A stretch of 64,000 nucleotides of DNA from Eledone cirrhosa (lineage: Eukaryota). The position numbers and the translations under genes were made by a program. Below are positions 13,168-64,000 of the stretch, piece after piece (the stretch's first letter is position 1; every line of letters starts with the position of its first letter). The stretch is from assembly GCA_964016885.1 (NCBI GenBank), contig OZ024764.1:24056001-24120000 (forward strand), in the 5' to 3' direction. The notes beneath the pieces are model-generated. The model had not been told where the DNA came from, did no database searches, and saw only the letters and a list, made by a program, of their open reading frames with translations.

Positions 13168-13367
13168 TATGAGTTGTATTTAATTTGTTGGAATTCCGAC
13201 AAACATAAATGTTTATAACTGATATAGAGCACTCAACAAGTTACTGGAGTAAATATTCCAAGATAATAATAAATGGAAACTATATTTATAAAACTATATT
13301 TATTTTATTATACATATTTCAAGGTGTGATTTCCATGGGTATGTCATTATTTATAAAACAAATTTTG

Positions 13368-13432: not shown

Positions 13433-13899
13433 AATATGGTTTTATAATGCAAGCGTGGAATATGGACGTTAAACGATGATGATGAGTTTCCATTTATTAT
13501 TATCTTGGTATATATATATATATATATATACCAAGAACTATTAGATAAAATATACACAGTATTTCCTCTCCCTAGTCCATATAAATCAACCATATAAATA
13601 ATCATTTAAACAAGGCTATAAGTTTAAAATATAACTATGAAGAAATAACAGACAAATGATAGAGACTATTTTCCGCGAGGGACAGCCAGATAAAATTTAT
13701 CTAGTCATTCCTTTTAGCCCGGAGAAATTAACTAGACAAATAATCAACTACACGGAGTTAGGTCTAAAATAGAAGTTTGAAGAAAAAATGCATATAAACT
13801 TTACCAAAATTCCTCTAGTCTCTACTACCGGTAGTTTAGTTCCTTTTCTGCGGTTATACCCGATCCTGAATCTATATATATATATATAATGTTATATAT

Positions 13900-23899: not shown

Positions 23900-24243
23900 T
23901 ACGATATTAAATAAATGGAAACTATATTTATAAAACCATATTTATTTCATTATATATATTTCAGGGATATCATATTAACAATATGTTATGCCTTCTTCAG
24001 ACAAAATACAATATAGACAGTTTTATAGATAAATAGATTTGACATACCATTTGACTGCCAAATCAACTTTTTCAAATACAAGTCGATGTTGAACGGTATG
24101 TCAAATCTATTTATCTATAAAACTGTCTATATTGTATTTTGTCTGAAGAAGGCATAACATATTGTTAATATGATATCCCTGAAATATATATAATGAAATA
24201 AATATGGTTTTATAAATGTAGTTTCCATTTATTTAATATCGTA
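23900..24243. repeat. 149-bp inverted repeat (46-nt spacer) with a hammerhead motif in each arm
   Basis: 23900-24048 is the reverse complement of 24095-24243 (1 mismatch). Confidence 0.92.
24135..24200 (+). ncRNA. Hammerhead ribozyme motif, same family as 13368-13432
   Basis: tattttgt-CTGAAGA-aggcata...tatccct-GAAA-tatata-TA-atgaaata; stem I 8 bp with two G-U pairs; shares downstream flank aaatatggttttataa with the 13.4-kb copy. Confidence 0.65.
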
Positions 24244-24543
24244 AATATACTCCAAATACTTGTTGAGTGCTTTTATATCAGTTATAAATATTTACTAGTT
24301 GTAACCCAACAATTTAAATATAACTTTCCATATATATGTATATATATATATATAAATGAAGTATTTCCGTTGGAAAGGTACAGGAAAAATGAGTGCTCTC
24401 TGTAGGCTACAGAGCTTATTAGTTATGTAATAAACAACATAAGATAATTATTTCATTTTTGACGACTGAAGACAGACACAACATCTGCCTTCAAGAAACC
24501 AGTGGTAAATGAAATAATTATCTTATGTTGTTTATTACATAAC

Positions 24544-24602
<59 letters not shown>

Positions 24603-30285: not shown

Positions 30286-30632
30286 GGAGGCACATGGCTT
30301 AGTGGTTAGAGCATTGGCCTTGCAATCGAAAGATTGTGAGTTCAATTCTCAGACTGGGTGATGCGTTGTTTCCTTGAGCAAGACACTTTATTTCACATTG
30401 CTCCAGTTTACTCAGCTGTAGAAATGAGATGATAGGGACTGGAGTCCCTATCATTCCACTGCAAAGTGGTCGTGGAGGTGCCACGGCAAAAAAGCACCCA
30501 GCACTCACTGTAAATGAGGTTGGTGTTAGGAAGGGCATCCAGCTGTAGAAATCAATCCAGTATCAGTTCCCGTCCCACCCTTGCAAGCAGGGAAAAGCGG
30601 ACGTAAAATGAAATGATGATGATGATGATGAT
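30286..30632 (+). mobile_element. tRNA-derived SINE with RTE-derived 3' end and (GAT)n tail
   Basis: ggaggcacaTGGCTTAGTGGttagagc...GAGTTCAATTC (pol III A/B boxes); central ccttgagcaagacact; 3' ggtgttaggaagggcatccagc.gtagaaa...gcaagc...ggacgt...gatgat shared with the RTE 3' UTR. Confidence 0.85.
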
Positions 30633-37743: not shown

Positions 37744-37814
37744 CTTTGATCAGAGTTCATCTGTAACTTTAGCAAGGTAAGATCTTCTTGATACTGGATT
37801 TCTTTCATACGGGT
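37744..37814 (-). CDS. RPGRIP1L: RPGRIP1L coding exon (71 nt; TRMKEIQYQEDLTLLKLQMNSDQ-R)
   Basis: caacag acceptor after a CT-rich tract, AG|gtaagc donor; 23 codons + 2 nt; resembles vertebrate '[24 protein letters not shown]'. Confidence 0.85.
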
Positions 37815-38984: not shown

Positions 38985-39842
38985 CAGGGTGTGGACGATA
39001 TTTGTTCGCAATTTTCAACTGCTGATTTTATGCAAATATTTTTACTTCCGTTGTCACTCTTGTCTTCATAAAAACAGTGACTATATTTCTATTATTTATT
39101 TTCAGAATAATTGATTATGAATAATTTTGAACCTCCAAATTTGTGGAAGAGACAGAGTTCCTCTTGGAATCCGCGCCTGGAGGACAAATAAGGACCAGAA
39201 GATCAACTCCCAGAACAACAGGTGGCTTGCTGTCTCATCCAAAGACCTGCCCAGAGTCATGCAGACAAAGTTTCCAGCGACAACATTGGTCTTAGGTGTC
39301 ATCAGCAGTCAAGGTGACGTCAAGCCACCCCACTTCTTCCCTGAGGACCTCAAGCTGAACACCGATGGCTACATCCGCGTTCTGAGCGAGGTAGTAAAGC
39401 CCTGGATCGACCAGGTAGCTGCAGGTAGGCTGTACGTGTGGCAGCAAGACCCAAGCCTGGTTGTCAGAGAACTTCGTCGACCACACTTCACCTGACATCT
39501 GGCCTCCCAGCTCGCCTGACTGCAACCCCCTCGACTTCTTTGTGTGGGGCACAGTGGAACGAGACACCAACAGATCTAGCTGCAATAGGAAAGACGATCT
39601 GAAGGCCAGGATCACAAGTGCCTTTAGGGGCCTAAGTCGGGGGACAGTGACGAAGGCCTGTAACCGGTTCCGAGGCCGCCTTGAGGCCGTCATCAAAGCC
39701 AATGGCTGGTTTATCGAGTGAGATTGAAAGAACAAGTCATGAAGACAAACTGACCCAAGTTTGATAAATAAATCTTAAAAAATAAAACTACTGTGTTATT
39801 TTTTCCTAGACAGTAATCTTGCGAACAAATATCGTCCGCACC

Positions 39843-39904: not shown

Positions 39905-39905
<1 letters not shown>

Positions 39906-40011
39906 TGCTTCTCAAAAATAATTTTGAGATAGAGTGCTTGTGATATTTGCTCTAATCAGATTAGAGCAAACATCACGTGCGCTCTATCTCAAAATTATTT
40001 TTGAAAAGCAT
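39905..40011. repeat. ~53-bp-arm hairpin palindrome centred at 39958
   Basis: atgcttctcaaaaataattttgagatagag...tctaatc-a-gattaga...ctctatctcaaaattatttttgaaaagcat. Confidence 0.85.
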
Positions 40012-40144: not shown

Positions 40145-40179
<35 letters not shown>

Positions 40180-40182
<3 letters not shown>

Positions 40183-42310
40183 TAAAAAAATAATGAATAA
40201 ATCTATCCTTAAAAACCTTGCATATAATATATCACTTAGAATTTCTAACCTTTCGTCTAACCAAGATGTATTTGATAAAAATGCGACCTTCTATAACGAA
40301 GCTCTAGATAGAAGTGGCCATAAAAATAGATTGGAATATATACCTTCTACTAATAACACTATAAACATACAACCTAATATTACCAACAAACACCAAATGA
40401 AAAGTACACACCTAAATGCCACTCACACTATACCCCAAAATACCAACATAAAACCAAATTTCACTAACTCCTCTAATATAAAGTATAGTAACTCTCAAAA
40501 AACTACTCATCATACAACTCTAATAAATGTTAATAATAAAACTCCTAATAAACAAGCTAAAACACCTAAATCAATAAATCTAACTAAAAATGTGTGTGGA
40601 GAGGTCATTAACATTAATCCTCCTAGTAAACATCAGGATGCATCCTATAAAAACAATAAACAACATAGAAACCGTAATAGAAGAGTTACTTGGTATAATG
40701 CTCCATTTAATTTACAAATTAAGGATAATATACCTAAAAAAATTTTTAATATCCTAAAGAAAAACTTCCCGCCAAACCACAAATACCATCAAATCTTAAA
40801 TAGATCAACAGTTAAATTCTCATACTCAACAACCAAAAACATAAAACAAAATATAAGTGCCTATAATGCATATAAATGTAAAAAAACCATAAGTATACCA
40901 CCAATACATCAAACTAACCATAATATCTCCTCAAATACAGAATTAATGAAAGGTTGTAACTGTAGAAACAAAGCAAACTGCCCATTAAAAGGAAATTGTC
41001 TTGTTAACAACATAGTTTATAAATGTAAAGTTAAAACTAAAGATTCTATTTGCTCATATATAGGAGCTACTTCTAACAATTTTAAGGTAAGGTTTAATAC
41101 CCACAAACATAGTTTTAAAAATGCCGCACTGGCTAATACATCTCTAGCAGAAAAAATTAATAGTTATAGAAATAAGAATATAGAATATGATATGACCTGG
41201 AGTGTGCTCAAAAGAGCCACCCCTTATCAAAATAATAGAAATGAATGTAGATTGTGTTCCCAAGAACTATTTGAAATAATGAATATCCTAAGGATATCCT
41301 ATTAAATAAGCGACAGGAATTAATTATATCGTGTAATCATAAACTGAGAAAAACATTTAAATATTATAAACCTAATTAATAATATATATTTTAGAAATTA
41401 ATATATAAATTAATTTTAATGTAGTTAACCTATAATTTTAATTTAATTAAAATTCTACTACAGATGAAATTAAAAAATATCGTATAATCATAAACTGTGA
41501 AAAACATTTAAATATTATTAACATAATTAATATATATTTTGGAAATTAATATATAGATTAATTTTAGTTTATTTAACCTTTTATTAAAATTCTTTTACAG
41601 ATGAATTACAACAAAATATTGTGTAATTAATAACGGAGAAATACTTTTTAATATTATAAACCTAATTAATATACAATTTAGAAATTAATATATAAATTAA
41701 TTTTAATTTAGTTAACCTATAATTTTAATTTAGTTAGCTTATAATTAAAATTCTAATAAAGATGGATTGCAGAATATCGTGTAATCACAAACTGAGAAAA
41801 ACTTTTAAATATATACCTAATTAATATACTCTTTACAAATTAATATATAGATTAATTTAAATTTAGTTAACCTATAATTAAAATTCTACTATAGATAAAA
41901 TACAAAATTTTGCTTTAATTATTATAAACCTAATTAACATATACTATAGAAATTAATATATAATTTTTAATTTAGTTAACCTATAATTAATATTCTACTA
42001 CCGATGAAATACTTAATTTGGCTTTCCCTATTACAAAATTCATTTCCTAAAATTGATACCATCATGTTAATATATGTAATTATTTTTAATTTAGTTATGC
42101 TATAATTAATACTCTACTACTGTTTAACTTCAAAATTCCGCTTTAAATATTATAAACCTAAGTAGTATACACCTTAGAAATTAATATATTAACTATTTTT
42201 ACTTTAATTAACCTATAATTAATATTCTACTTATATTAAAATACATAATTTAGCCTTCTTTCTTACAAATACCATTTCCTAAAACTGATACAACTATGTA
42301 AACACATATT
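40180..42310 (+). mobile_element. 5'-truncated Penelope-like element (RT thumb + linker + GIY-YIG) with tandem-repeat 3' region
   Basis: ORF 40193-41305: RISNLSSN...WYNAPF...KFSYS...CNCRNKANCPLKGNC...IVYKC...YIGAT...FKVRFNTH...CRLC; frameshift near the C-terminus; followed by ~150-bp degenerate repeats of the ORF end. Confidence 0.85.
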
Positions 42311-42517: not shown

Positions 42518-42584
<67 letters not shown>

Positions 42585-42705
42585 GGAGGTGAGTTTTATT
42601 GTAGTACAATAAAGCAATGCAGATATCGGATAAGAAGCACTCTACAGTTTGTGGGACTGGAGTATGCATAATATAAGATCAAAAGATGGTTAAAGGAGTT
42701 CAATA

Positions 42706-42776
42706 TATTTTATTATGCGCATTTCAAAAACAAACATCATCAAACAATAATATTTGTGTTTTCATCAGATAAAACA
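42706..42776 (-). ncRNA. Hammerhead ribozyme at the 3' end of the Penelope left arm
   Basis: Reverse complement of 49006-49076. Confidence 0.85.
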
Positions 42777-43796
42777 GGAGAACATGATATGAAGGCTAAA
42801 AAAAAAAAACACTTGTTGATAGTGCAGTTTTAAATCAACATATGAAAAGTGGTTTTAGATTGATGTGTGATATTGGGAAAAATATTTTATTTAGAGAGGG
42901 GGGGAGAGAAAAGGATGAAAAGGGAAGGAGATGAGAGGGAGAGATGGGTGATAGAGAGAAAGAGATAGTTTTTATAACAGAGAGGAGATATATTTTATAT
43001 AGAGGGGTTGAAAACCGTTGGAAGATACTGTATAAATTAAAAATTTTGAAAATTAACGAAGGGAGGATATGTGCGAGGAAAAAATATATTATATTTATAT
43101 TTAGGGAGGGGTGGGGGTGGAAAGGATGAAAAAAAGGGGAGGAGATGAGAGTGAAGGTGGAAAGGGAGAGATGGGTGATAGAGAGAAAGAGATAGTTTTT
43201 ATAACTGAGAAAAAGATATAATGTTTTAATATAGAGAGGTTGGGAACCGTTGGAAGATAATGTATAAATTAAAGGAATTTGAAAATTAACGAAGGGAAAT
43301 TATGTATGGAGATAGAGAGAAAAAAATAACGAAGGGAGATTATGTATGGAGATAGAGAGAAAAAAATAATAATTGTGGGTGAATATTCAAAAGGAGAAAT
43401 GTAGGAATCTTAAAATTAGCAAAGAGAAAATGTTTATGTATAGGATTTGAGAAAAATTTATATTGAATTCATATGTATTAATAATGAGTTCGTTGATGGG
43501 GAGAAAAAAATAATAATAATAAATTAAGGATGAAATTGAGATTAAAAAGATTTATGATAGAGAGAAAAAATAATAATGATTGCGGATGAATACTCAAAAT
43601 GTCAAAAACAAATGTTATTGTTTTACGAAGAGATATAATGAGGGTGATGAGTAAACGGGTATTATAGAGTGTATAATGCCCTTTAAAGTAAGGTAGATGG
43701 GTATATTTTAAAGAATATATGAGTATATATTAAAAAAAATATATATAATAATAAATTAAGGATGAAATTGAGATTAAAAAGATTTATGATAGAGGG

Positions 43797-43827
<31 letters not shown>

Positions 43828-44024
43828 ATAATGATTGCGGATGAATATTCAAAATGTCAAAAACAAATGTTATTGTTTTACGAGAAGATAGGATGAGGTA
43901 AATGAATAAACGAGTACTATAGAGTGTATAATGCCCTTTAAAGTAAGGTAGATGGGTATATTTTAAAGAGGTGTATGTATATGTGGCTTTGAGAAAAGAT
44001 TCTAAATTGATAAAGAATTGAATA

Positions 44025-45908
44025 TTAACTGTATACTTTGTGAAAAGTTCTATGGAATTTATGAAGGCAGATGGAAAACAAATCCGAGCGTCTATTTATT
44101 ATGGATTCTAGGTTAGAGATAATGGTAAATTTTTCATTTAGGCAGAGATTACAGATTTTAGATAGAGAACTGTTCAAGTACGAGGATGCAGAAGAAATCT
44201 TTTTCCAAAAGATGTTATATTTAATGTTTTTGTCTTTTAAGGACCATATGAGTTCTGAGAGAGCAGTGTTAGTTCTTTTAAGTTTGTATTTGAAAGATGA
44301 ATGATGATTATAGAGACGAGCTTTAAAAGAGGTGGAAGTGGAGCCAAAATAGGTGAAGGAGTTGGTGCTAGTTATAATTTTACATTCATAAATTAAGTTT
44401 TTATCGAGGCAATGGTTGTTGAGAGGACATTTATTTTTAATGCGGCAGTTGCAATTAGAGAGATTATTAATGAGTGATCTAGTGTTATCTATAGAAGGAA
44501 TTGGATTGGAGAAGTTGTTTGCGATAGGAATAATAGGAATAATAGTTTCTTGATTTAGAGTTGGATTATGAACATTTAGCGAAGTTGTGTTTGACGTTGC
44601 ATTTGGGTTTACAGAAGTTAGCCTAGGGTTTACAATGACGTCAGGAGTACTATTATTGTTATTATGAGATTCAATATTGGAAGGAAGAGATTTAGTATTT
44701 AATATTTTGTTGTTGTGTTTAGAAATGATGTTGGAAATATTGGAGGATGTAGAATACGAAAATTTAATGGTGTGTTTGTTAAATATTTTACTATAGATAT
44801 GTGAGGGAGGGAAGCATTTATTTAAGGCACTAAAAAATAATTTAGGAATATTGTTATTAATAGAGATGGAGAAAGGAGCATTATACCAGATTATGTTTTT
44901 GTATCTAGGTCTTTTATTAAAATTATTGGAATGGTTATGATTAAATATTCTACTGTAAGTTTTCCTAGAATTTGTTTCTTTATTATATTTGATTTTATCT
45001 GGATAGCCAGCTTTAGAAAGTGCGTTATTATAGTAATTGGCGTTAGCATCAAAGATGTTTTTATTAGAAGATATGTTAGATATTCTATTTCCAATATTAT
45101 TAACTATAGCATTCTTGATATTGGTAGGATGGTTAGATTTAAAGTTAACATAATTAAGATTCTCATTGTTTTTATGGTAAGGGTAATATAGGCCAGTGTC
45201 AAGATTAAGAGATACATCCAAGAAATTAGCTAGTTTGGTACTATTATCAAATTCAATTTTTAGGTTATGTTGGTTAAAGAGATTACGTATATTGTTCTTA
45301 ATAATATTAAGTTTAACTATATTGCAATTTAGGATAGTAAAGAGTCCATCGTCACGATAAATTCCACCGCGAAGTTGAGGAATTTTCCGACTCAAAGAGT
45401 TCAAAATGAAGATACCAATTAAATCAGTCAATTGGGATGAATCGGATGCTCCCATTGTGATGTCGAAGTTGTTAGAGGTATCGGCTCTGGTCCAATATTC
45501 GTTGTTGAACTCTAGGATGGTTTTACGTGCGGTGAGGATGATGTGAAGTTCATCTGTGGTGATGTCAGAATATTTAAGTGCGAAAGATAGAGCATTATTG
45601 AGAAGTGAAGGCGAAATGGAGGAATAGTAGCTGGCAATATCGAATTGAATAAATTTTAGTTTGTTTTTATTATCCAATTTGTTGAACCAGCCAATCACTT
45701 CAGAAGTACCAAACCATAAATTTAGGTTTAAAGAAGAGCAATTAGAACTAACCTGTGGGATAATCCTATCCAAGATGGCTTTACTAACAACCCCCAGATC
45801 AGATTTAGAGGGGGCGATTAATCTAACAGGTAGTTCAGTGCGAAAATTGTTTTTGTGATCCTTGAGATTTATCCTCGGAGTTCTTGGGAGGAATGGTTCG
45901 GTCAATGT
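44025..45908 (-). CDS. Penelope-like RT + GIY-YIG ORF (5'-truncated), left arm
   Basis: LKDHK, RLIAP.KSDLG, FIQFDIASYY, ITMGA, IYRDDG, NFLDV, SNHP, CNCRIKNKCPLNNHC, LIYEC...YFGST...FKAR, CNLCLNEK; no ATG start. Confidence 0.88.
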   Translation of the reverse strand, partial: TLTEPFLPRTPRINLKDHKNNFRTELPVRLIAPSKSDLGVVSKAILDRIIPQVSSNCSSLNLNLWFGTSEVIGWFNKLDNKNKLKFIQFDIASYYSSISPSLLNNALSFALKYSDITTDELHIILTARKTILEFNNEYWTRADTSNNFDITMGASDSSQLTDLIGIFILNSLSRKIPQLRGGIYRDDGLFTILNCNIVKLNIIKNNIRNLFNQHNLKIEFDNSTKLANFLDVSLNLDTGLYYPYHKNNENLNYVNFKSNHPTNIKNAIVNNIGNRISNISSNKNIFDANANYYNNALSKAGYPDKIKYNKETNSRKTYSRIFNHNHSNNFNKRPRYKNIIWYNAPFSISINNNIPKLFFSALNKCFPPSHIYSKIFNKHTIKFSYSTSSNISNIISKHNNKILNTKSLPSNIESHNNNNSTPDVIVNPRLTSVNPNATSNTTSLNVHNPTLNQETIIPIIPIANNFSNPIPSIDNTRSLINNLSNCNCRIKNKCPLNNHCLDKNLIYECKIITSTNSFTYFGSTSTSFKARLYNHHSSFKYKLKRTNTALSELIWSLKDKNIKYNIFWKKISSASSYLNSSLSKICNLCLNEKFTIISNLESIINRRSDLFSICLHKFHRTFHKVYS

Positions 45909-47763
45909 TCCGAGGATAAATCTCAAGGATCACAAAAACAATTTTCGCACTGAACTACCTGTTAGATTAATCGCCCCCTCTAAATCTGATCTGGGGGTTG
46001 TTAGTAAAGCCATCTTGGATAGGATTATCCCACAGGTTAGTTCTAATTGCTCTTCTTTAAACCTAAATTTATGGTTTGGTACTTCTGAAGTGATTGGCTG
46101 GTTCAACAAATTGGATAATAAAAACAAACTAAAATTTATTCAATTCGATATTGCCAGCTACTATTCCTCCATTTCGCCTTCACTTCTCAATAATGCTCTA
46201 TCTTTCGCACTTAAATATTCTGACATCACCACAGATGAACTTCACATCATCCTCACCGCACGTAAAACCATCCTAGAGTTCAACAACGAATATTGGACCA
46301 GAGCCGATACCTCTAACAACTTCGACATCACAATGGGAGCATCCGATTCATCCCAATTGACTGATTTAATTGGTATCTTCATTTTGAACTCTTTGAGTCG
46401 GAAAATTCCTCAACTTCGCGGTGGAATTTATCGTGACGATGGACTCTTTACTATCCTAAATTGCAATATAGTTAAACTTAATATTATTAAGAACAATATA
46501 CGTAATCTCTTTAACCAACATAACCTAAAAATTGAATTTGATAATAGTACCAAACTAGCTAATTTCTTGGATGTATCTCTTAATCTTGACACTGGCCTAT
46601 ATTACCCTTACCATAAAAACAATGAGAATCTTAATTATGTTAACTTTAAATCTAACCATCCTACCAATATCAAGAATGCTATAGTTAATAATATTGGAAA
46701 TAGAATATCTAACATATCTTCTAATAAAAACATCTTTGATGCTAACGCCAATTACTATAATAACGCACTTTCTAAAGCTGGCTATCCAGATAAAATCAAA
46801 TATAATAAAGAAACAAATTCTAGGAAAACTTACAGTAGAATATTTAATCATAACCATTCCAATAATTTTAATAAAAGACCTAGATACAAAAACATAATCT
46901 GGTATAATGCTCCTTTCTCCATCTCTATTAATAACAATATTCCTAAATTATTTTTTAGTGCCTTAAATAAATGCTTCCCTCCCTCACATATCTATAGTAA
47001 AATATTTAACAAACACACCATTAAATTTTCGTATTCTACATCCTCCAATATTTCCAACATCATTTCTAAACACAACAACAAAATATTAAATACTAAATCT
47101 CTTCCTTCCAATATTGAATCTCATAATAACAATAATAGTACTCCTGACGTCATTGTAAACCCTAGGCTAACTTCTGTAAACCCAAATGCAACGTCAAACA
47201 CAACTTCGCTAAATGTTCATAATCCAACTCTAAATCAAGAAACTATTATTCCTATTATTCCTATCGCAAACAACTTCTCCAATCCAATTCCTTCTATAGA
47301 TAACACTAGATCACTCATTAATAATCTCTCTAATTGCAACTGCCGCATTAAAAATAAATGTCCTCTCAACAACCATTGCCTCGATAAAAACTTAATTTAT
47401 GAATGTAAAATTATAACTAGCACCAACTCCTTCACCTATTTTGGCTCCACTTCCACCTCTTTTAAAGCTCGTCTCTATAATCATCATTCATCTTTCAAAT
47501 ACAAACTTAAAAGAACTAACACTGCTCTCTCAGAACTCATATGGTCCTTAAAAGACAAAAACATTAAATATAACATCTTTTGGAAAAAGATTTCTTCTGC
47601 ATCCTCGTACTTGAACAGTTCTCTATCTAAAATCTGTAATCTCTGCCTAAATGAAAAATTTACCATTATCTCTAACCTAGAATCCATAATAAATAGACGC
47701 TCGGATTTGTTTTCCATCTGCCTTCATAAATTCCATAGAACTTTTCACAAAGTATACAGTTAA
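45909..47763 (+). CDS. Penelope-like RT + GIY-YIG ORF (5'-truncated), right arm
   Basis: Mirror copy of the left arm, same motifs, uninterrupted. Confidence 0.88.
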
Positions 47764-49005
47764 TATTCAATTCTTTATCAATTTAGAATCTTTTCTCAAA
47801 GGCACATATACATACACCTCTTTAAAATATACCCATCTACCTTACTTTAAAGGGCATTATACACTCTATAGTACTCGTTTATTCATTTACCTCATCCTAT
47901 CTTCTCGTAAAACAATAACATTTGTTTTTGACATTTTGAATATTCATCCGCAATCATTATTATTTTTTTTTTTTTTTTTTTTTTTTTTTTCCCTCTATCA
48001 TAAATCTTTTTAATCTCAATTTCATCCTTAATTTATTATTATATATATTTTTTTTAATATATACTCATATATTCTTTAAAATATACCCATCTACCTTACT
48101 TTAAAGGGCATTATACACTCTATAATACCCGTTTACTCATCACCCTCATTATATCTCTTCGTAAAACAATAACATTTGTTTTTGACATTTTGAGTATTCA
48201 TCCGCAATCATTATTATTTTTTCTCTCTATCATAAATCTTTTTAATCTCAATTTCATCCTTAATTTATTATTATTATTTTTTTTCTCCCCATCAACGAAC
48301 TCATTATTAATACATATGAATTCAATATAAATTTTTCTCAAATCCTATACATAAACATTTTCTCTTTGCTAATTTTAAGATTCCTACATTTCTCCTTTTG
48401 AATATTCACCCACAATTATTATTTTTTTCTCTCTATCTCCATACATAATCTCCCTTCGTTATTTTTTTCTCTCTATCTCCATACATAATTTCCCTTCGTT
48501 AATTTTCAAATTCCTTTAATTTATACATTATCTTCCAACGGTTCCCAACCTCTCTATATTAAAACATTATATCTTTTTCTCAGTTATAAAAACTATCTCT
48601 TTCTCTCTATCACCCATCTCTCCCTTTCCACCTTCACTCTCATCTCCTCCCCTTTTTTTCATCCTTTCCACCCCCACCCCTCCCTAAATATAATATATTT
48701 TTTCCTCGCACATATCCTCCCTTCGTTAATTTTCAAAATTTTTAATTTATACAGTATCTTCCAACGGTTTTCAACCCCTCTATATAAAATATATCTCCTC
48801 TCTGTTATAAAAACTATCTCTTTCTCTCTATCACCCATCTCTCCCTCTCATCTCCTTCCCTTTTCATCCTTTTCTCTCCCCCCCTCTCTAAATAAAATAT
48901 TTTTCCCAATATCACACATCAATCTAAAACCACTTTTCATATGTTGATTTAAAACTGCACTATCAACAAGTGTTTTTTTTTTTTAGCCTTCATATCATGT
49001 TCTCC

Positions 49006-49076
49006 TGTTTTATCTGATGAAAACACAAATATTATTGTTTGATGATGTTTGTTTTTGAAATGCGCATAATAAAATA
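49006..49076 (+). ncRNA. Hammerhead ribozyme at the 3' end of the Penelope right arm
   Basis: tgttttat-CTGATGA-aaacacaaatattatt gttt gatgatgtttgttttt-GAAA-tgcgca-TA-ataaaata; palindromic ATGCGCAT stem III. Confidence 0.85.
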
Positions 49077-49106
49077 TATTGAACTCCTTTAACCATCTTT
49101 TGATCT

Positions 49107-49174
<68 letters not shown>

Positions 49175-49427
49175 GTGTATGTATATATGTGTATGTATAT
49201 GTATTTGTAGAGATGTGTGTATGTATGTGTATATATGTGCATATGTGTCTGACTGTGTGTATTTAAATATATATATATATATATATATATGTGTATGTAT
49301 GTCTCTATATATATGTATGTCTGAGTGTGTGTGTGTGTGTGTGTGGTTGTGTATATATACATGGGTATGTGTGTGTCTATGTATATATATATATATATGT
49401 GTGTGTGTGTATATATATGTATATATG

Positions 49428-49509
<82 letters not shown>

Positions 49510-50776: not shown

Positions 50777-50887
50777 ATAGGAACAACTAAGACCCCGACG
50801 GCTGAGCTCAAGCCGTTTCGACGGCTAATTCTGTATAGAATTAGCCGTCGAAACGGCTTGAGCTCAGCCGTCGGGGTCTTACTTGTT

Positions 50888-50892
<5 letters not shown>
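50777..50892. repeat. 116-nt hairpin palindrome containing a hammerhead 3' half (GAAAC-ggc...gcc-GTC)
   Basis: 58-bp arms; same family as 55287-55450. Confidence 0.88.
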
Positions 50893-51817: not shown

Positions 51818-51952
51818 ATATTTATAAAATAACAGATTAAAGTTTAAGCAAAGAATCGCTGCTTTCACTCTTAACGGGATCTTCTGAAGATCCTGTTAAG
51901 GGTGAAAGCAGCGATTCTTTGCTTAAACTTTAATCTGTTATTTTATAAATAT
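51818..51952. repeat. 135-nt hairpin palindrome centred at 51885 in a CTGAAGA hammerhead-like core
   Basis: ...ttaacgggatcttc-t-gaagatcctgttaa...; one-armed family copy at ~55100-55245 (-). Confidence 0.85.
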
Positions 51953-53919: not shown

Positions 53920-53989
53920 CTCTCTCTGAAAGTCTTTAAATTGTTGTTGCTGCATTTCAATTGTTCTTTGTAAACAGTCATTTTCTTCT
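53920..53989 (-). CDS. RPGRIP1L: RPGRIP1L/fantom coding exon (70 nt; xEENDCLQRTIEMQQQQFKDFQRE)
   Basis: tttctag acceptor and GAG|gtttgt donor; 1 nt + 23 codons, ends in phase 0, matching the next exon; coiled-coil composition comparable to vertebrate RPGRIP1L 'RNLENVIQSQRGQIEELE' (recalled). Confidence 0.7.
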
Positions 53990-55090: not shown

Positions 55091-55608
55091 GTCTCCAAGT
55101 AATAAATGTGAAGACTAAAATCCAAAGAGGGCTCAATAAGGATAAATATATATCAAATATATACCCTAGAGCAAATATTTATTAAAATAGCAGATTAAAG
55201 TTTAAGCAAAGAATCGCTGCTTTCACCCTTAACGGGATCTTCTGGAACTAAAAAAAATCAATCTGTGAACACAGAAGTAAATATATATAGGAAAAGAGTC
55301 AGGACCTAACAGGATCTAACTGTCGAAACAGCTGGAGCTCAGCTGTCGGGGTCCTGACTCTTTTCCTATTACCCACTCTATTACCCTAAGTATTGAGTAC
55401 TCTGGTGTGTTATGGTCCACCTGGTTTCTTACCACATTTCCTTTGTTATATATATATATATGTCCAATATAGAAATGGCTTCTACAGGACTAGAACTGTT
55501 TCATTCGGGAGAAAACATCAGGGCTTTCCTACTTCTGCTATGTATTGAGTACCTTTACTTACTGTGGTTAGCCCCGATTGAACCCGGGATATACATATAC
55601 ATATATAT

Positions 55609-55710: not shown

Positions 55711-56335
55711 AAGTGAGTCCTTCATCAGTGACCCTCCAACCGTCCTCGGCATTTCATCGCTTTAAGGGCCATATGCCTCAGGTTGGTGCGAACAACGGCT
55801 AAAAAAAGTCGTTGGGACACGTAAATAAAGGGGGACGCTAGAGTAACAACAATAGAGTTTAAGCAACGGAAAGTGAGTAGAAATAGACAAGTCCCAGATC
55901 TCTATGAATATAAACTCTGTGAAATCGTGAACAAGAGACGAAAGACCATCGAACCTGGTAGAAATGTGAGCAAGGAAAGAATTTCGCCCAAGTTTGACGG
56001 GGGGGGGAAAAAAGAGAGAGAGAGAGAAAGAAAAAGGAGAGAAGAGGAAGAAGAAGAAGAAGAAGAAGAAGAAGAAGAAGATAAGGTGGTCTGGTCTACG
56101 AATTCGGTAAACGCAAGTTTTGTGAAGTCGCAGACGAAAGAGAGAGAGAAAAAAATTCCATACCAGCTCGGTCAAGACTGCGCGAGAAAAGAATTACACA
56201 CAGGTCAAACTTGAAGGAGGAGGAGGAAAGAGGAGGAGGAGAGGTAGTGACAGAGAATGAGTGAGTGAAAGTTGAGGAGAGAGTAACAGAGAGGGAGACT
56301 GCTAGAAGTGGTAAAGATATATATATACATACATA

Positions 56336-57495
56336 TATAAGATCAAAAGATGGTTAAAAGAGTTCCATGTATTTTATTATGCGCATTTCAAAAACAAATA
56401 TCATCATGCAATAACATTTGTGTTTTCATCAGATAAAATAGGAAGACATGATCTGAAGGTTAAAAAACACTTGTGGATAGTGCAGTTTTAAATCAACTTA
56501 TGAGAAGTAGTTTTAGATTGATGTGTGATATTGGGGACATTTTTTTGGGGGGGGGGGGGGGTGAAAAAGAGGAGGAGATGAGAGTAAAAAGTGGAGGGGG
56601 AGGAGTATAATGAGGAAGGATGAGATAGGAGGAGAGATGGGTGATAGAGAGAGAGAAATAGCTTTTATAACTGAGAAAAATATATTGTTTTACATAGAGA
56701 GGTTGAAAAACCGTTGGAAGATAATGTATAAATTAAAAGAATTTGAAAATTAACGAAGAGAAAAATAATTTTAAGTTAAGGTTTGTATATTGAGGGGTTT
56801 AATAATATGTGCGATGAAAAGAAATTGTTAATATGTATTAAGAATAATATTTAAGGGTTTAATAATATGTGCGATGGAAAGAAAATGTTAATATGTATTA
56901 AGAATAATATTTAAGGGTTTAATAATATGTACGATGGAAAGAAAATGTTAATATGTATTAAGAATAATATTTAAGGGTTTAATAATATGTACGATGGAAA
57001 GAAAATGTTGATATGTATTATTAAAAAAACAATAGTAATGTAAGTAAGGATATATTAGATGAGCATGAAAGGGAGAATAAAATAATGAATTGAGGATGAA
57101 TAATCTAACGTCAAAAAAATGTTTATGTTTACGAAGGATTTTTTCAAGGTGATATAAAGTAAGAATATATTGTACTGTGTAATAATTGTTTCTATGTTAG
57201 GCACAATGAGAAAAGGTACAGATTAGGGGTTAGAAATTAAAAGAAAAAAGAAAAGAAAAGGAAGAAAGGGAAGTGATAAATAGGAGTGATATAGAATGAG
57301 TAACTAGTATTATAGAATGTATAATAAATAACTTTGAAATAAGGTAGAAGGATGGGTATATTTTTAAAGAAGTATATATAAATATATATATATGTGCCTT
57401 TGAGAAAAGGATTTTAAATTGATAAAGTATTAGATATTAGCTGTATACTTTATGGAATGTTCTGTGGAATTTATGCAAGCAGAGAGAAAACAAGT
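56336..57495 (-). mobile_element. Diverged third copy of the palindrome's Penelope family (ORF end + 3' UTR + hammerhead)
   Basis: Encodes DLFSLCLHKFHRTFHKVYS*; 3' UTR colinear with 42672-44085; internal 60-bp tandem at ~56795-57020. Confidence 0.88.
56370..56440 (-). ncRNA. Hammerhead ribozyme of the third Penelope copy
   Basis: tattttat-CTGATGA-aaacacaaatgttatt gcat gatgatatttgttttt-GAAA-tgcgca-TA-ataaaata. Confidence 0.85.
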
Positions 57496-60400
57496 CAGTT
57501 GGTGTGTTGATAGTCAAAGTTGGTACTAGTTCCACAGTTCATGTGTTGATAGTCAAAGTTGGTACTAGTTCCACAGTTCATGTGTTGATAGTCAAAGTAG
57601 GTACTAGTTCCACAGTTTGTGTGTTGATAGTCAAAGTTGGTACTAGTTCCACAGTTGGTGTGTTGATAGTCAAAGTTGGTACTAGTTCCACAATTGGTGT
57701 GTTGATAGTCAAAGGTGGTACTAGTTCCACAGTTGGTGTGTTGATAGTCAAAGTTGGTACTAGTTCCACAGTTGGTGTGTTGATAGTCAAAGTTGGTACT
57801 AGTTCCACAGTTGGTGTGTTGATAGTCAAAGTTGGTACTAGTTCCACAGTTGGTGTGTTGATAGTCAAAGTTGGTACTAGTTCCACATTTACTGTGTTGA
57901 TAGTCAAAGTTGGTACTAGTTCCACAGTTGGTGTGTTGATTGTCAAAGTTGGTACTAGTTCCACAGTTGGTGTGTTGATAGTCAAAGTTGGTACTAGTTC
58001 CACAGTTCATGTGTTGATAGTCAAAGTAGGTACTAGTTCCACAGTTCATGTGTTGATAGTCAAAGTTGGTACTAGTTCCACAGTTTGTGTGTTGATAGTC
58101 AAAGTTGGTACTAGTTCCACAGTTGGTGTGTTGATAGTCAAAGTTGGTACTAGTTCCACAATTGGTGTGTTGATAGTCAAAGGTGGTACTAGTTCCACAG
58201 TTGGTGTGTTGATAGTCAAAGTTGGTACTAGTTCCACAGTTACTGTGTTGATAGTCAAAGTTGGTACTAGTTCCACAGTTGGTGTGTTGATAGTCAAAGT
58301 TGGTACTAGTTCCACAGTTGGTGTGTTGATAGTCAAAGTTGGTACTAGTTCCACAGTTACTGTGTTGATAGTCAAAGTTGGTACTAGTTCCACAGTTTGT
58401 GTGTTGATAGGTCAAAGTTGGTACTAGTTCCACAGTTGGTGTGTTGATAGTCAAAATTGGTACTAGTTCCACAGTTGGTGTGTTGATAGTCAAAGTTGGT
58501 ACTAGTTCCACAGTTGGTGTGTTGATAGTCAAAGTTAGTACTAGTTCCACAGTTTGTGTGTTGATAGGTCAAAGTTGGTACTAGTTCCACAGTTGGTGTG
58601 TTGATAGTCAAAATTGGTACTAGTTCCACAGTTGGTGTGTTGATAGTCAAAGTTGGTACTAGTTCCACAGTTCATGTATTGATAGTCAAAATTGGTACTA
58701 GTTCCACAGTTCATGTGTTGATAGTCAAAGTTGGTACTAGTTCCACAGTTGGTGTGTTGATAGTCAAACTTGGTACTAGTTCCACAGTTACTGTGTTGAT
58801 AGTCAAAGTTGGTACTACTTCCACAGTTGGTGTGTTGATAGTCAAAGTTGGTACTAGTTCCACAGTTGGTGTGTTGATAGTCAAAGTTGGTACTACTTCC
58901 ACAGTTGGTGTGTTGATAGTCAAAGTTGGTACTAGTTCCATAGTTGGTGTGTTGATAGTCAAAGTTGGTACTACTTCCACAGTAGGTGTGTTGATAGTCA
59001 AAGTTGGTACTAGTTCCACAGTTGGTGTGTTGATAGTCAAAGTTGGTACTAGTTCCACAGTTGGTGTGTTGATAGTCAAAGTTGGTACTACTTCCACAGT
59101 TGGTGTGTTGATAGTCAAAGTTGGTACTACTTCCACAGTTGGTGTGTTGATAGTCAAAGTTGGTACTAGTTCCACAGTTGGTGTGTTGATAGTCAAAGTT
59201 GGTACTAGTTCCACAGTTGGTGTGTTGATAGTCAAAGTTGGTACTAGTTCCACAGTTACTGTGTTGATAGTCAAAGTTGGTACTACGTCCACAGTTGGTG
59301 TGTTGATAGTCAAAGTTGGTACTAGTTCCACAGTTGGTGTGTTGATAGTCAAAGTTGGTACTAGTTCCACAGTTACTGTGTTGATAGTCAAAGTTGGTAC
59401 TACTTCCATAGTTTGTGTGTTGATAGGTCAAAGTTGGTACTAGTTCCACAGTTGGTGTGTTGATAGTCAAAATTGGTACTAGTTCCACAGTTGGTGTGTT
59501 GATAGTCAAAGTTGGTACTAGTTCCACAGTTGGTGTGTTGATAGTCAAAGTTAGTACTAGTTCCACAGTTTGTGTGTTGATAGGTCAAAGTTGGTACTAG
59601 TTCCACAGTTGGTGTGTTGATAGTCAAAATTGGTACTAGTTCCACAGTTGGTGTGTTGATAGTCAAAGTTGGTACTAGTTCCACAGTTCATGTATTGATA
59701 GTCAAAATTGGTACTAGTTCCACAGTTCATGTGTTCATAGTCAAAGTTGGTACTAGTTCCACAGTTGGTGTGTTGATAGTCAAAGTTGGTACTAGTTCCA
59801 CAGTTACTGTGTTGATAGTCAAAGTTGGTACTACTTCCACAGTTGGTGTGTTGATAGTCAAAGTTGGTACTAGTTCCACAGTTGGTGTGTTGATAGTCAA
59901 AGTTGGTACTACTTCCACAGTTGGTGTGTTGATAGTCAAAGTTGGTACTAGTTCCATAGTTGGTGTGTTGATAGTCAAAGTTGGTACTACTTCCACAGTT
60001 GGTGTGTTGATAGTCAAAGTTGGTACTAGTTCCACAGTTGGTGTGTTGATAGTCAAAGTTGGTACTACTTCCACAGTTGGTGTGTTGATAGTCAAAGTTG
60101 GTACTACTTCCACAGTTGGTGTGTTGATAGTCAAAGTTGGTACTACTTCCACAGTTGGTGTGTTGATAGTCAAAGTTGGTACTAGTTCCATAGTTGGTGT
60201 GTTGATAGTCAAAGTTGGTACTACTTCCACAGTTGGTGTGTTGATAGTCAAAGTTGGTACTAGTTCCACAGTTGGTGTGTTGATAGTCAAAGTTGGTACT
60301 AGTTCCACAGTTGGTGTGTTGATAGTCAAAGTTGGTACTAGTTCCACAGTTACTGTGTTGATAGTCAAAGTTGGTACTAGTTCCACAGTTGGTGTGTTGA

Positions 60401-63400
60401 TAGTCAAAGTTGGTACTAGTTCCACAGTTGGTGTGTTGATAGTCAAAGTTGGTACTACTTCCACAGTTGGTGTGTTGATAGTCAAAGTTGGTACTAGTTC
60501 CACAGTTGGTGTGTTGATAGTCAAAGTTGGTACTAGTTCCACAGTTGGTGTGTTGATAGTCAAAGTTGGTACTAGTTCCACAGTTACTGGGTTGATAGTC
60601 AAAGTTGGTACTACTTCCACAGTTGGTGTGTTGATAGTCAAAGTTGGTACTACTTCCACAGTAGGTGTGTTGATAGTCAAAGTTGGTACTAGTCCCACAG
60701 TTGGTGTGTTGATAGTCAAAGTTGGTACTAGTTCCACAGTTGGTGTGTTGATAGTCAAAGTTGGTACTACTTCCACAGTTGGTGTGTTGATAGTCAAAGT
60801 TGGTACTACTTCCACAGTTGGTGTGTTGATAGTCAAAGTTGGTACTACTTCCACAGTTACTGTGTTGATAGTCAAAGTTGGTACTAGTTCCACAGTAGGT
60901 GTGTTGATAGTCAAAGTTAGTACAACTTCCACAGTTACTGTGTTGATAGTCAAAGTTGGTACTACTTCCACAGTTGGTGTGTTGATAGTCAAAGTTGGTA
61001 CTACTTCCACAGTTACTGTGTTGATAGTCAAAGTTGGTACTAGTTCCACAGTTGGTGTGTTGATAGTCAAAGTTGGTACTACTTCCACAGTTACTGTGTT
61101 GATAGTCAAAGTTGGTACTACTTCCACAGTTGGTGTGTTGATAGTCAAAGTTGGTACTACTTCCACAGTTGGTGTGTTGATAGTCAAAGTTGGTACTACT
61201 TCCACAGTTGGTGTGTTGATAGTCAAAGTTGGTACTAGTTCCACAGTTGGTGTGTTGATAGTCAAAGTTGGTACTACTTCCACAGTAGGTGTGTTGATAG
61301 TCAAAGTTGGTACTAGTTCTACAGTTGGTGTGTTGATAGTCAAAGTTGGTACTAGTTCCACAGTTGGTGTGTTGATAGTCAAAGTTGGTACTACTTCCAC
61401 AGTTACTGTGTTGATAGTCAAAGTTGGTACTAGTTCCACAGTAGGTGTGTTGATAGTCAAAGTTGGTACTACTTCCACAGTTGCTGTGTTGATAGTCAAA
61501 GTTGGTACTACTTCCACAGTTGGTGTGTTGATAGTCAAAGTTGGTACTAGTTCCACAGTTGGTGTGTTGATAGTCAAAGTTGGTACTACTTCCACAGTTG
61601 GTGTGTTGATAGTCAAAGTTGGTACTAGTTCCATAGTTGGTGTGTTGATAGTCAAAGTTGGTACTACTTCCACAGTTGGTGTGTTGATAGTCAAAGTTGG
61701 TACTAGTTCCACAGTTGGTGTGTTGATAGTCAAAGTTGGTACTAGTTCCATAGTTGGTGTGTTGATAGTCAAAGTTGGTACTACTTCCACAGTTGGTGTG
61801 TTGATAGTCAAAGTTGGTACTACTTCCACAGTTGGTGTGTTGATAGTCAAAGTTGGTACTACTTCCACAGTTGGTGTGTTGATAGTCAAAGTTGGTACTA
61901 CTTCCACAGTTGGTGTGTTGATAGTCAAAGTTGGTACTAGTTCCACAGTTGGTGTGTTGATAGTCAAAGTTGGTACTAGTTCCACAGTTGGTGTGTTGAT
62001 AGTCAAAGTTGGTACTAGTTCCACAGTTACTGTGTTGATAGTCAAAGTTGGTACTACTTCCACAGTTGGTGTGTTGATAGTCAAAGTTGGTACTAGTTCC
62101 ACAGTTGGTGTGTTGATAGTCAAAGTTGGTACTAGTTCCACAGTTACTGTGTTGATAGTCAAAGTTGGTACTACTTCCACAGTTTGTGTATTGATAGGTC
62201 AAAGTTGGTACTAGTTCCACAGTTGGTGTGTTGATAGTCAAAATTGGTACTAGTTCCACAGTTGGTGTGTTGATAGTCAAAGTTGGTACTAGTTCCACAG
62301 TTGGTGTGTTGATAGTCAAAGTTAGTACTAGTTCCACAGTTTGTGTGTTGATAGGTCAAAGTTGGTACTAGTTCCACAGTTGGTGTGTTGATAGTCAAAA
62401 TTGGTACTAGTTCCACAGTTGGTGTGTTGATAGTCAAAGTTGGTACTAGTTCCACAGTTACTGTGTTGATAGTCAAAGTTGGTACTACTTCCACAGTTGG
62501 TGTGTTGATAGTCAAAGTTGGTACTACTTCCACAGTTGGTGTGTTGATAGTCAAAGTTGGTACTACTTCCACAGTTGGTGTGTTGATAGTCAAAGTTGGT
62601 ACTACTTCCACAGTTGGTGTGTTGATAGTCAAAGTTGGTACTAGTTCCACAGTTACTGTGTTGATAGTCAAAGTTGGTACTACTTCCACAGTTACTGTGT
62701 TGATAGTCAAAGTTGGTACTAGTTCCACAGTTGGTGTGTTGATAGTCAAAGTTGGTACTACTTCCACAGTTGGTGTGTTGATAGTCAAAGTTGGTACTAC
62801 TTCCACAGTTCGTGTGTTGATAGTCAAAGTTGGTACTAGTTCCACAGTTGGTGTGTTGATAGTCAAAGTTGGTACTACTTCCACAGTTACTGTGTTGATA
62901 GTCAAAGTTGGTACTAGTTCCACAGTCGGTGTGTTGATAGTCAAAGTTGGTACTAGTTCCACAGTTGGTGTGTTGATAGTCAAAGTTGGTACTAGTTCCA
63001 CAGTTACTGTGTTCATAGTCAAAGTTGGTACTAGTTCCACAGTTGGTGTGTTGATAGTCAAAGTTGGTACTAGTTCCACAGTTGGTGTGTTGATAGTCAA
63101 AGTTGGTAGTAGTTCCACAGTTACTGTGTTCATAGTCAAAGTTGGTACTAGTTCCACAGTTGGTGTGTTGATAGTCAAAGTTGGTACTAGTTCCACAGTT
63201 GGTGTGTTGATAGTCAAAGTTGGTAGTAGTTCCACAGTTACTGTGTTCATAGTCAAAGTTGGTACTAGTTCCACAGTTGGTGTGTTGATAGTCAAAGTTG
63301 ATACTAGTTCCACAGTTGGTGTGTTGATAGTCAAAGTTGGTAGTAGTTCCACAGTTACTGTGTTCATAGTCAAAGTTGGTACTAGTTCCACAGTTACTGT

Positions 63401-64000
63401 GTTGATAGTCAAAGTTGGTACTACTTCCACAGTTGGTGTGTTGATAGTCAAAGTTGGTACTACTTCCACAGTTGGTGTGTTGATAGTCAAAGTTGGTACT
63501 AGTTCCACAGTTGGTGTGTTGATAGTCAAAGTTGGTACTAGTTCCACAGTTACTGTGTTGATAGTCAAAGTTGGTACTAGTTCCACAGTTGGTGTGTTGA
63601 TAGTCAAAGTTGGTACTAGTTCCACAGTTGGTGTGTTGATAGTCAAAGTTGGTACTAGTTCCACAGTTACTGTGTTGATAGTCAAAGTTGGTACTAGTTC
63701 CACAGTTCGTGTGTTGATAGTCAAAGGTGGTACTAGTTCCACAGTTCATGTGTTGATAGTCAAAGTTGGTACTACTTCCACAGTTGGTGTGTTGATAGTC
63801 AAAGTTGGTACTAGTTCCACAGTTGGTGTGTTGATAGTCAAAGGTGGTACTAGTTCCACAGTTGGTGTGTTGATAGTCAAAGTTGGTACTAGTTCCACAG
63901 TTGGTGTGTTGATAGTCAAAGGTGGTACTAGTTCCACAGTTGGTGTGTTGATAGTCAAAGTTGGTACTAGTTCCACAGTTACTGTGTTGATAGTCAAAGT
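57496..64000. repeat. 39-bp minisatellite (>165 copies, runs off the window)
   Basis: Unit gttggtgtgttgatagtcaaagttggtactagttccaca; 40-bp variants recur with 157-bp and 1016-bp spacing. Confidence 0.98.

Follow-up and report, generated by a model that had tools for sequence, protein, structure and literature searches.

Results

The window, by which we mean the whole stretch of DNA analysed (64,000 nt), carries seven mapped exons of an RPGRIP1L-like gene, in order on the - strand, and all three candidates in the exon probe matched Octopus 'protein fantom-like' (90-92%). Two consecutive exons enclose a GT..AG intron of 16,105 nt, which contains the element, in agreement with the initial annotation. 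The sequence on both outer sides of the insert is rich in T and G, with C making up 2-3% of the + strand, as if one tract had been split, and no separate target duplication was readable. The features are as follows.

37744..37814, - strand: RPGRIP1L-like exon downstream of the host intron (tblastn 69% to P0123 residues 217-242, AG/GT borders)
42521..42581, unstranded: (TA)30 microsatellite, left part of the target site
42582..42667, - strand: one-sided 3' extension ("tail"), 86 nt, from family contigs
42668..45879, - strand: left arm, 3,212 nt, 5'-truncated Penelope-like element (PLE), putatively of the Hydra clade
42668..44024, - strand: 3' UTR of the left arm, 1,357 nt
42706..42776, - strand: type I hammerhead motif of the left arm (descriptor scan; predicted cut after 42714)
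44025..45902, - strand: reverse transcriptase (RT), N-rich linker and GIY-YIG frame of the left arm, native part, no start codon
From 44453, - strand: CxCX5C of the left arm
45348-45359, - strand: YRDD motif of the left arm
45880..45903, - strand: native part of the spacer, 24 nt, continuing the left-arm element (family-contig match)
45904..45908, unstranded: filler at the turn, 5 nt, not element sequence at that place
45909..49114, + strand: right arm, 3,206 nt, mirror copy ending at the short 3' end of the family
45910 to stop at 47763, + strand: right-arm frame, native part
49006..49076, + strand: type I hammerhead motif of the right arm (descriptor scan; predicted cut after 49068)
49115..49504, unstranded: (TA)n and TG/TA-rich tract, right part of the target site
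53920..53989, - strand: RPGRIP1L-like exon upstream of the host intron (tblastn 65% to P0123 residues 195-223, AG/GT borders)

The palindrome is real as sequence. Arm-to-arm alignment gave 99.7% identity with a total of four differences: one substitution (43986/47802), two homopolymer gaps of 1 nt each (43825 and 48277), and one 6-nt gap at about 43103, the same kinds of difference as had been listed initially. Judged against family contigs, the derived states of both the substitution and the 6-nt duplication are on the left arm. The proposed 6.45-kb near-perfect palindrome therefore stands as to its arms, but not as to its extent: the true left boundary is 42582, not 42668, and the whole insert measures 6,533 bp with its tail, which is present at the left end only. 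The arms are separated by a spacer of 29 nt (45880-45908), and the stem extends into the filler by two G-T wobble pairs only. The first four bases of the filler match two places, one 8 nt further along the family sequence and one inside the spacer. The 3' UTR contains internal duplications of about 220-240 nt that are 80-84% alike.

The initial description of a whole-element mirror, copied all the way to the 3' terminus, was too generous at both ends. About 167 N-terminal codons are absent from both arms, the insert cannot encode a whole protein, and the right arm ends at the short end, 86 nt before the end of the left-arm element.

Both arm frames are open (634 codons stop to stop), and YRDD is also found in 93/93 long homologues. 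In structure comparison, the predicted RT fold matched reverse transcriptases including TERT, R2, and LINE-1, and the predicted nuclease fold returned GIY-YIG in the top three rows (I-TevI: Z = 9.0, rmsd = 2.3, 89 aligned). The claim of a Penelope-type RT with GIY-YIG in each arm is borne out by these open frames, folds, and YRDD. Pfam returned no family in either of the two frames and nothing above the cut-off for five homologues and four exon peptides; no solved structure matched under E = 0.03 in a profile search, and none under E = 0.001 in Foldseek with the nuclease model.

The nuclease is C-terminal to the RT in a single ORF, which makes the element an EN+ PLE, and two optional PLE features are present, i.e., a one-sided tail (86 nt, not 30-40) and an adjacent inverted 5'-truncated copy. 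This order argues against the Naiad and Chlamys clades, which would need the nuclease N-terminal to the RT. Full-length PLEs also have an upstream pLTR derived from a partial tandem, and both arms here are truncated. The linker CNCRIKNKC at residue 493 is a CxCX5C motif, likewise found in 82/93 homologues; CX2-5CxxC has no match in the frame, and only one Cys lies between the two GIY-YIG core motifs, so that there is no CCHH inside the core. Neptune and Nematis, which are defined by the CX2-5CxxC finger and the CCHH motif, were rejected for this reason. CxxC..E at 593 and CxH at 621 flank conserved E and N as in the Hydra clade, to which insertion into (TA)n also points. These motifs place the element in the Hydra clade, with reference Hydra proteins compared by eye only: the KDHK, FDxxMG, and YRDD blocks resemble those of the Hydra proteins in the PMC8557442 supplement. 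The best database relatives are about 35-43% identical. N-terminal RW[KR] (77/93) and DKT (83/93) occur in the homologues, in a region lost here by truncation, and the N-rich linker has 92 residues vs. a median of 21 in the 93 homologues.

A hammerhead motif near each end, as initially claimed, was recovered by descriptor scan at 42768 (-) and 49014 (+), in a layout like that in the PMC8557442 supplement table. The scan found eight motifs in the window vs. a mean of 0.025 in 40 shuffles (max = 1). The left-arm hammerhead has a stem I of 8 bp, a long stem II, and a palindromic 4+4 stem III, and its activity is predicted only. Rfam did not report the arm hammerheads at gathering score or at E up to 10; the folding z-scores of the two arm motifs are weak (-1.07 and -0.37), and for 7/7 motifs single-strand folding was no better than that of shuffles at |z| of 2. 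The hammerhead of a related copy at 56335 differs at two stem positions, with pairing kept, and at two loop positions. The left hammerhead alone is sense in the host pre-mRNA, the right one being antisense.

We compared the insert with family contigs from 4 of 23 sequencing runs (X1, X3, X4, and X7) over 3,379 of its 6,533 bases, namely the tail, the left arm, the spacer, and 52 nt of the right arm; no RNA run was among the 23 listed. Contigs match through 45903 and then diverge in three of the four runs, which upholds the reading of the spacer as a continuation of the left arm. The tail was covered in all four runs, with a shared variant at 42653 in 56, 7, 2, and 7 contigs, and the short end was seen separately in one X7 contig and in the copy at 56335, both running into (TA)n. 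With contig depth taken as a rough proxy, summed depth at 45746-45858 relative to the hammerhead was 1.5% in X4, 6% in X1, and 3% in X7; X3 had no contig cover there. At 42702, 44064, 44361, 44724, and 45009, the two arms share states unlike those of all covering contigs, and we take the arms to derive from one source for this reason. Of the 41 contig joints, none of the 15 listed passes through the apex, nor does any single piece cover the whole compared region; such joints are uninformative on the existence of the apex because runs differ at fixed positions and contigs collapse repeats.

A hairpin scan of the window returned seven matches. After one simple GGT/ACC repeat was dropped, six were left, i.e., the focal palindrome and five small hairpins. 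In all six, one arm ends 5 nt or less from (TA)5+ and the other side carries an extension of 65-136 nt; just 1.2% of unmasked positions are as near to (TA)5+. Their loops are 1, 1, 4, 29, 46, and 48 nt. Hammerhead parts occur in four of the five small hairpins (one by scan, three by eye), and by eye the turn sits at a natural hammerhead stem in those at 24.4 and 50.8 kb and likewise in the short-armed one at 55.3 kb. The hairpin at 39.9 kb has no hammerhead and no second copy, and the one at 24.4 kb has its extension on the side expected to be the copy. Because five shorter (TA)n-anchored hairpins of like build share the window, the focal palindrome represents the longest form of a product that is routine locally.

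Discussion

We propose that the locus holds one insertion of a 5'-truncated Hydra-type PLE, probably produced by fold-back of the first cDNA strand, which then primed its own copying; fold-back had been suggested initially. The element nuclease would nick (TA)n, and the RT would begin at the tail end of the RNA and extend the cDNA by about 3.3 kb, halting about 167 codons before the ORF start. The 3' end of the cDNA, with five filler bases, would then turn onto cDNA 24 nt behind, and the second strand would be copied back to the short end of the family and joined there to (TA)n, the hairpin being opened into a palindrome by repair or replication. Arm length would thus be set by how far the stop point lies from the first short end; in a full-length copy it would be counted from a turn inside the upstream terminal repeat, which would yield merely the familiar short inverted repeat.

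Fold-back is favored because the arms terminate within 24 nt of each other, deeper in the element than all but a few family copies seem to extend, because only the left arm is continued by native spacer sequence (three of four runs), and because the private states shared by the arms point to one source. It is further favored by the build of the six hairpins, all (TA)n-anchored with a one-sided extension and some with small loops, and by turns at natural hammerhead stems (24.4, 50.8, and 55.3 kb, by eye). Self-priming has been put forward for PLE head-to-head junctions (PMC3846280), and the tail of the anole element PAc lies between two in vitro RT start sites (PMC11167929). Several observations count against fold-back. 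There is no true microhomology at the turn, so the priming step is not readable from sequence; the derived substitution and 6-nt duplication of the left arm need later mutation; the extension of the 24.4-kb hairpin, perhaps not element, lies on the copy side, which the simple model does not give; and the 39.9-kb hairpin lacks a hammerhead and a second copy. PMC3846280 also argues that head-to-head self-priming must use an antisense template, and we found no demonstration of snap-back by a PLE RT in the PLE literature examined.

Two-ended priming, in which a dimer starts cDNA on each side of cut (TA)n, once at the tail and once at the short end, on one RNA or two, and the tips are joined with filler, is an unlikely alternative. 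The anole PLE cuts and extends both strands, with its two RT starts bracketing the tail (PMC11167929), both ends of the insert are real family ends beside (TA)n, filler without microhomology suits end joining, and this route leaves room for differences between the arms and for reversed polarity in the 24.4-kb hairpin. Independent cDNAs, however, should not stop 24 nt apart after 3.2 kb, a difficulty that the one-RNA version escapes; hairpin priming is suggested by the 1-4-nt loops and by the turns that coincide with natural stems; and one long and one short end in 6/6 hairpins has a chance of about 1 in 64 at even odds.

Self-priming might instead have occurred on antisense element RNA, giving a hairpin intermediate integrated with staggered ends. 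This was proposed for head-to-head junction palindromes (PMC3846280), and the mixed polarity in this window is consistent with reports of tails at one or the other end of PLE inserts (PMC8557442). An antisense promoter or RNA of the family is hypothetical, however, and the in vitro work (PMC11167929) used sense RNA with target priming, so we regard this origin as very unlikely. Equally improbable is an artefact in which a fold-back read or misjoin mirrored a single element. Arms 99.7% alike, two of whose four differences are homopolymer lengths, would suit it, and assemblies are known to be troubled by PLE inverted structures. Against it, consecutive host exons lie on both sides in order and orientation, the flanks are unique, the mirror halts at a genuine end of the family, only one side has a tail, the arms differ by one substitution and a 6-nt duplication, and five small hairpins of like build lie nearby.

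Filler and short TA-like stretches can serve host end joining, and the filler at the turn and the TA-like stretch at the short end could have done so had an older single copy broken near 45903 and been folded back and duplicated by host polymerase; this too is very unlikely, since copying went exactly as far as the short end of the family, which the copy at 56335 and the X7 contig show independently, 6/6 non-simple hairpins share the (TA)n-plus-extension build, and 4/5 small ones have hammerhead parts. We rejected a MITE or foldback DNA transposon because the arms code for RT and terminate as retroelement 3' ends do. We also rejected a pair of independent insertions at a single site, for which PMC5932611 offers a precedent, because of the outward 3' ends, the shared private states, and the shared truncation point.

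Head-to-head PLE copies with a one-sided tail are already published (PMC3846280; Penelope-13_HM, PMC8557442). The initial characterization as an extreme snap-back product fits the unusual length, but the arrangement itself is a published PLE type, with five small repeats of it in the window. Hydra-clade elements such as Hydra-1_Obim of Octopus bimaculoides (PMC8557442) share the C-terminal GIY-YIG, the CxCX5C linker, CxxC and CxH around E and N, a canonical hammerhead near the 3' end, and the (TA)n target; Hydra-1_Obim is a separate family with a different hammerhead, and the clade usually measures <3 kb, whereas the focal element is longer (1,357-nt 3' UTR, 92-residue N-rich linker). Penelope-13_HM (Repbase, Hydra clade; PMC8557442 supplement) likewise has a 5'-truncated inverted copy joined at the 5' end and hammerheads on both strands near both ends, but its inverted part is 966 of 3,045 nt, with unequal arms, whereas the focal arms match in length, at 3.2 kb each, with 29 nt between them. 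Adineta vaga Penelope (PMC3846280) shares the head-to-head layout, the palindrome at the inverted junction, the one-ended tail, and an N-rich insert between RT and nuclease; its inverted pLTRs (about 180-220 bp) and junction palindromes (18-38 bp) are far shorter, and it has a 31-bp tail and readable 8-10-bp target duplications in contrast to the 86-nt tail and (TA)n target here. Poseidon PAc of Anolis carolinensis belongs to another clade and shares two alternative 3' ends defining the tail, an AT-rich target, and a hammerhead upstream of the ends; fold-back products are not described in the available part of PMC11167929. An ATT/AAT triplet, ATT being preferred by PAc, is visible by eye near the short ends and is too common in AT-rich DNA to count. 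Among open PMC papers and bioRxiv, with older PLE reviews outside this set, we found no equal-armed whole-ORF PLE palindromes and no such cephalopod hairpins.

The host pre-mRNA is predicted to form a 3.2-kb duplex burying the single sense hammerhead, which would be paired within the stem. At 99.7% identity, this intronic stem would be of unusual length for a predicted substrate of ADAR or of small-RNA processing, and editing in the lineage is very high (PMC5625713). The potential DNA cruciform proposed initially is doubtful with a 29-nt spacer, given that strong palindrome effects in yeast drop above 8-nt spacers, although 12-nt spacers still broke (PMC8053094).

A single dead insertion of known arrangement is modest by itself. 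More speculatively, snap-back may be the normal Hydra-clade second-strand priming in octopods, often from hammerhead stems, with the hairpins a main source of dsRNA and hyper-editing. If so, truncated copies would seed the genome with (TA)n-anchored near-perfect hairpins of 40 bp to >3 kb per arm, six of which lie in this 64-kb window. Octopus reportedly has an exceptional load of near-perfect dsRNA and hyper-editing, and a palindromic repeat is said to be such a source in a frog; the hairpins would be a main source of that load, in parallel with the frog repeat. Second-strand synthesis in PLEs, with inverted and tailed ends, is called open in PMC3846280, PMC8557442, and PMC11167929. The locus and its five small neighbors form a natural series for loop size, turn position, and tail side, and such scoring genome-wide could separate fold-back from two-ended priming.

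Structure of the palindrome and its host intron

Self-alignment of the whole window returned a single long inverted match (42668-49114), which arm alignment divides into two arms; a one-sided 3′ extension, the tail, adjoins only one of them:

42582-42667, left end only: tail of the Penelope-like element (PLE), 86 nt, with contig cover in all four sequencing runs compared
42668-45879, - strand: left arm
45909-49114, + strand: right arm

Facing each other across a 29-nt spacer, the arms differ at four places: a single substitution, a 6-nt gap, and two homopolymer gaps of 1 nt. Each has an outward-pointing frame open for 634 codons, followed by a 3′ UTR of ~1357 nt containing internal duplications. 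Self-alignment, arm alignment, and frame reading thus bear out the arms, differences, spacer, open frames, and 3′ UTRs reported in the initial annotation. The total insert measures 6533 bp and is flanked by (TA)n at either end.

An exon probe gave matches of 90-92% to three fantom-like (RPGRIP1L) proteins from Octopus. Seven RPGRIP1L exons mapped in order on the - strand, and this order speaks against two loci having been joined. The element lies inside a 16,105-nt GT..AG intron of this strand, between consecutive exons:

53920-53989, - strand: flanking RPGRIP1L exon
37744-37814, - strand: flanking RPGRIP1L exon

These two exons are 65-69% conserved, below most other RPGRIP1L exons, and are missing from one of the three reference proteins. 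Large tandem arrays (14648-37719; units of ~48/96, 51, and 57 nt) and simple repeats fill RPGRIP1L introns, and 31,093 of the 64,000 bases in the window are masked.

Encoded protein and hammerhead motifs

Pfam named no family for the encoded protein. We found 238 relatives among 8000 scored candidates and inspected the best 120; among these, nearly all were unnamed and top identity was ~35-43%. The 93 with at least 660 residues formed the homologue set, and a structure model from their alignment (pLDDT 78.8) matched reverse transcriptases, including TERT, R2, and LINE-1. Folded separately (pLDDT 91.2), the C-terminal 145 residues matched I-TevI (Z = 9.0, rmsd 2.3, 89 aligned), T4 EndoII (Z = 7.6), and UvrC (Z = 6.0). 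The focal frame contains CxCX5C, CxxC..E, and CxH, with no match to CX2-5CxxC; RWK (77/93 homologues) and DKT (83/93) fall within an N-terminal region absent from the focal arms. Section 11 of PMC8557442 defines the Hydra clade by the same motif set as found in the focal frame and homologues, and the supplement catalogues a Hydra family from Octopus bimaculoides; by eye, three of the Hydra proteins in it have blocks in common with ours. Judged by sequence motifs, the element is assigned to the PLE Hydra clade. Relative to the homologues, both arms lack a median of 167 N-terminal residues, so neither encodes the whole protein.

A descriptor scan found eight hammerhead motifs in the window vs. 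0.025 expected by chance. Two cap the focal arms at a distance of 46 nt from the short end (the alternative family 3′ end without the tail); their stem I has 8 bp, and their stem III is palindromic (4+4). A related copy (56378-56432) differs at two stem positions, with pairing kept, and at two loop positions. Rfam did not report the arm-capping motifs and folding z-scores were weak, and we treat them as predicted motifs. In two published studies, metazoan PLE hammerheads seem built for dimer action and cleave poorly in vitro (PMC4209133), and the anole PLE hammerhead requires its protein (PMC11167929). The scan also returned motifs of other families at 13376, 51046, and 53418 (+).

Comparison with family contigs

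Seven of the 23 sequencing runs listed contained at least half of the sampled words (0.64 at most), none being recorded as RNA; for four, the comparison covered the tail and left arm, the spacer, and 52 nt of the right arm. In three of the four, contigs match the spacer as far as 45903 and run on from there into other sequence; hand-read in the ORF frame, this sequence includes KLGIEK, which lines up with homologue columns K-L-x-[LI]-[DE]. The native sequence of the left arm therefore takes in 24 bases of the spacer, leaving 45904-45908 as filler. A tail variant is common to 56, 7, 2, and 7 contigs in the four runs, and one contig of run X7 and the copy at 56335 end at the short end, followed by (TA)n. 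Because all 18 contigs covering 43986 agree with the right arm, and the 6-nt duplication is missing from one contig of run X4, the left arm has the derived state for both the substitution and the duplication. At another five listed positions, no covering contig agrees with either arm.

Neighbouring hairpins

A hairpin scan of the window (arms ≥30, loops ≤60) gave seven hits, one of which was dropped as a simple GGT/ACC repeat. The small hairpins are:

23900-24243: arm 149, loop 46; hammerhead in both arms (descriptor scan)
24420-24545: arm 39, loop 48; hammerhead parts (by eye)
39905-40011: arm 53, loop 1; no hammerhead parts
50777-50892: arm 56, loop 4; hammerhead parts (by eye)
51818-51952: arm 67, loop 1; hammerhead parts (by eye)

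Four of the five thus have hammerhead parts, detected by the scan in one and by eye in three, the exception being the hairpin at 39.9 kb. In all six hairpins, the focal one included, (TA)5+ lies no more than 5 nt from one end and the opposite end bears an extension of 65-136 nt; only 1.2% of unmasked window positions are as near to (TA)5+. The extension is repeated elsewhere in the window for three of the five small hairpins (82-92%). By eye, the turn coincides with a natural hammerhead stem in the hairpins at 24.4 and 50.8 kb, as it does in a shorter hairpin at 55.3 kb. Two more head-to-head pairs of PLE 3′ ends (55280-55461 and 13143-13447; self-inverted at ~71-73%) are below the arm cut-off or too diverged for the scan, and the tail of each matches another window copy.

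Head-to-head PLE copies, junction palindromes, and one-sided tails are described in PMC3846280 and PMC8557442, and Penelope-13_HM, a Repbase Hydra-clade entry (supplement of PMC8557442), includes an inverted copy of 966 nt and has a hammerhead at each end, like the two-ended capping seen here. We found in the open literature no equal-armed 3.2-kb PLE case, no PLE tails of 65-136 nt, and no cephalopod with a hairpin series like this one. The focal palindrome is a real, extreme variant of a known PLE arrangement, useful chiefly as a handle on PLE second-strand synthesis.

Origin of the palindrome

The palindrome probably arose by cDNA fold-back during insertion. In this scheme (TA)n would be nicked and cDNA synthesis primed from the tail end, halting ~167 codons too soon; the cDNA would then turn back on itself, with five filler bases at the turn, and be copied as far as the short end, where the copied strand would join (TA)n before repair or replication opened the hairpin. 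Fold-back is favored by the nearly equal ends of the focal arms and by loops of 1-4 nt among the neighbouring hairpins. Against it stand the lack of microhomology at the focal turn and the tail side, which is mixed: the 24.4-kb hairpin has its extension on the would-be copy side, contrary to the simplest fold-back model. Two-ended priming by a dimer is unlikely, even with PAc, the Poseidon PLE of Anolis carolinensis, extending both strands. Self-priming on antisense RNA, host repair, and an artefact are each improbable. None of the contig joints listed for the four runs crosses the apex, which is uninformative either way.

Predicted consequences

Host pre-mRNA would contain the antisense right arm first and the sense left arm after, so that a 3.2-kb duplex is predicted; only the left hammerhead would be sense, paired inside this duplex. 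According to PMC5625713, hyper-editing is very high in octopus, and the proportion of its loci that could form long near-perfect dsRNA is exceptional. The five small hairpins comprise 728 nt of arm, ~1% of one 64-kb window and not a genome estimate. The initial annotation also raised a potential DNA cruciform, which is doubtful at a 29-nt spacer because, in the yeast data of PMC8053094, fork blocking and MRX attack drop above 8-nt spacers, with 12-nt spacers still breaking; a hairpin in single-stranded DNA would be likelier.

Other elements in the window

A related focal-family copy (56335-57511, - strand; 77-87% in pieces) has the same hammerhead and the short end. Ahead of its last 24 codons lies a tandem array of a 39-nt unit (57496-64000, at least 6.5 kb), whose nearest units share the frame of these codons as 13-residue repeats, some with stops. 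Another Hydra-type PLE fragment (40178-41305, + strand; thumb, linker, and nuclease; 33% over 272 residues) is followed by an AT-rich 113-155-nt repeated stretch to ~42250. Open frames of 1096 and 693 codons (8256-11543 and 4124-6202, both - strand) have endonuclease/RT-like motifs of non-LTR retrotransposons (by eye). Two fragmented copies of transposase-like sequence (39121-39718 and 2171-2700) are presumably Tc1/mariner-like, judging by their motifs. Identical translations at 12069-12429 and 12701-13108 stem from a direct duplication of ~630 nt. A weak tRNA match (30293-30356, + strand; 29.8 bits) lies within a repeat occurring several times in the window and is likely the head of a tRNA-derived SINE.
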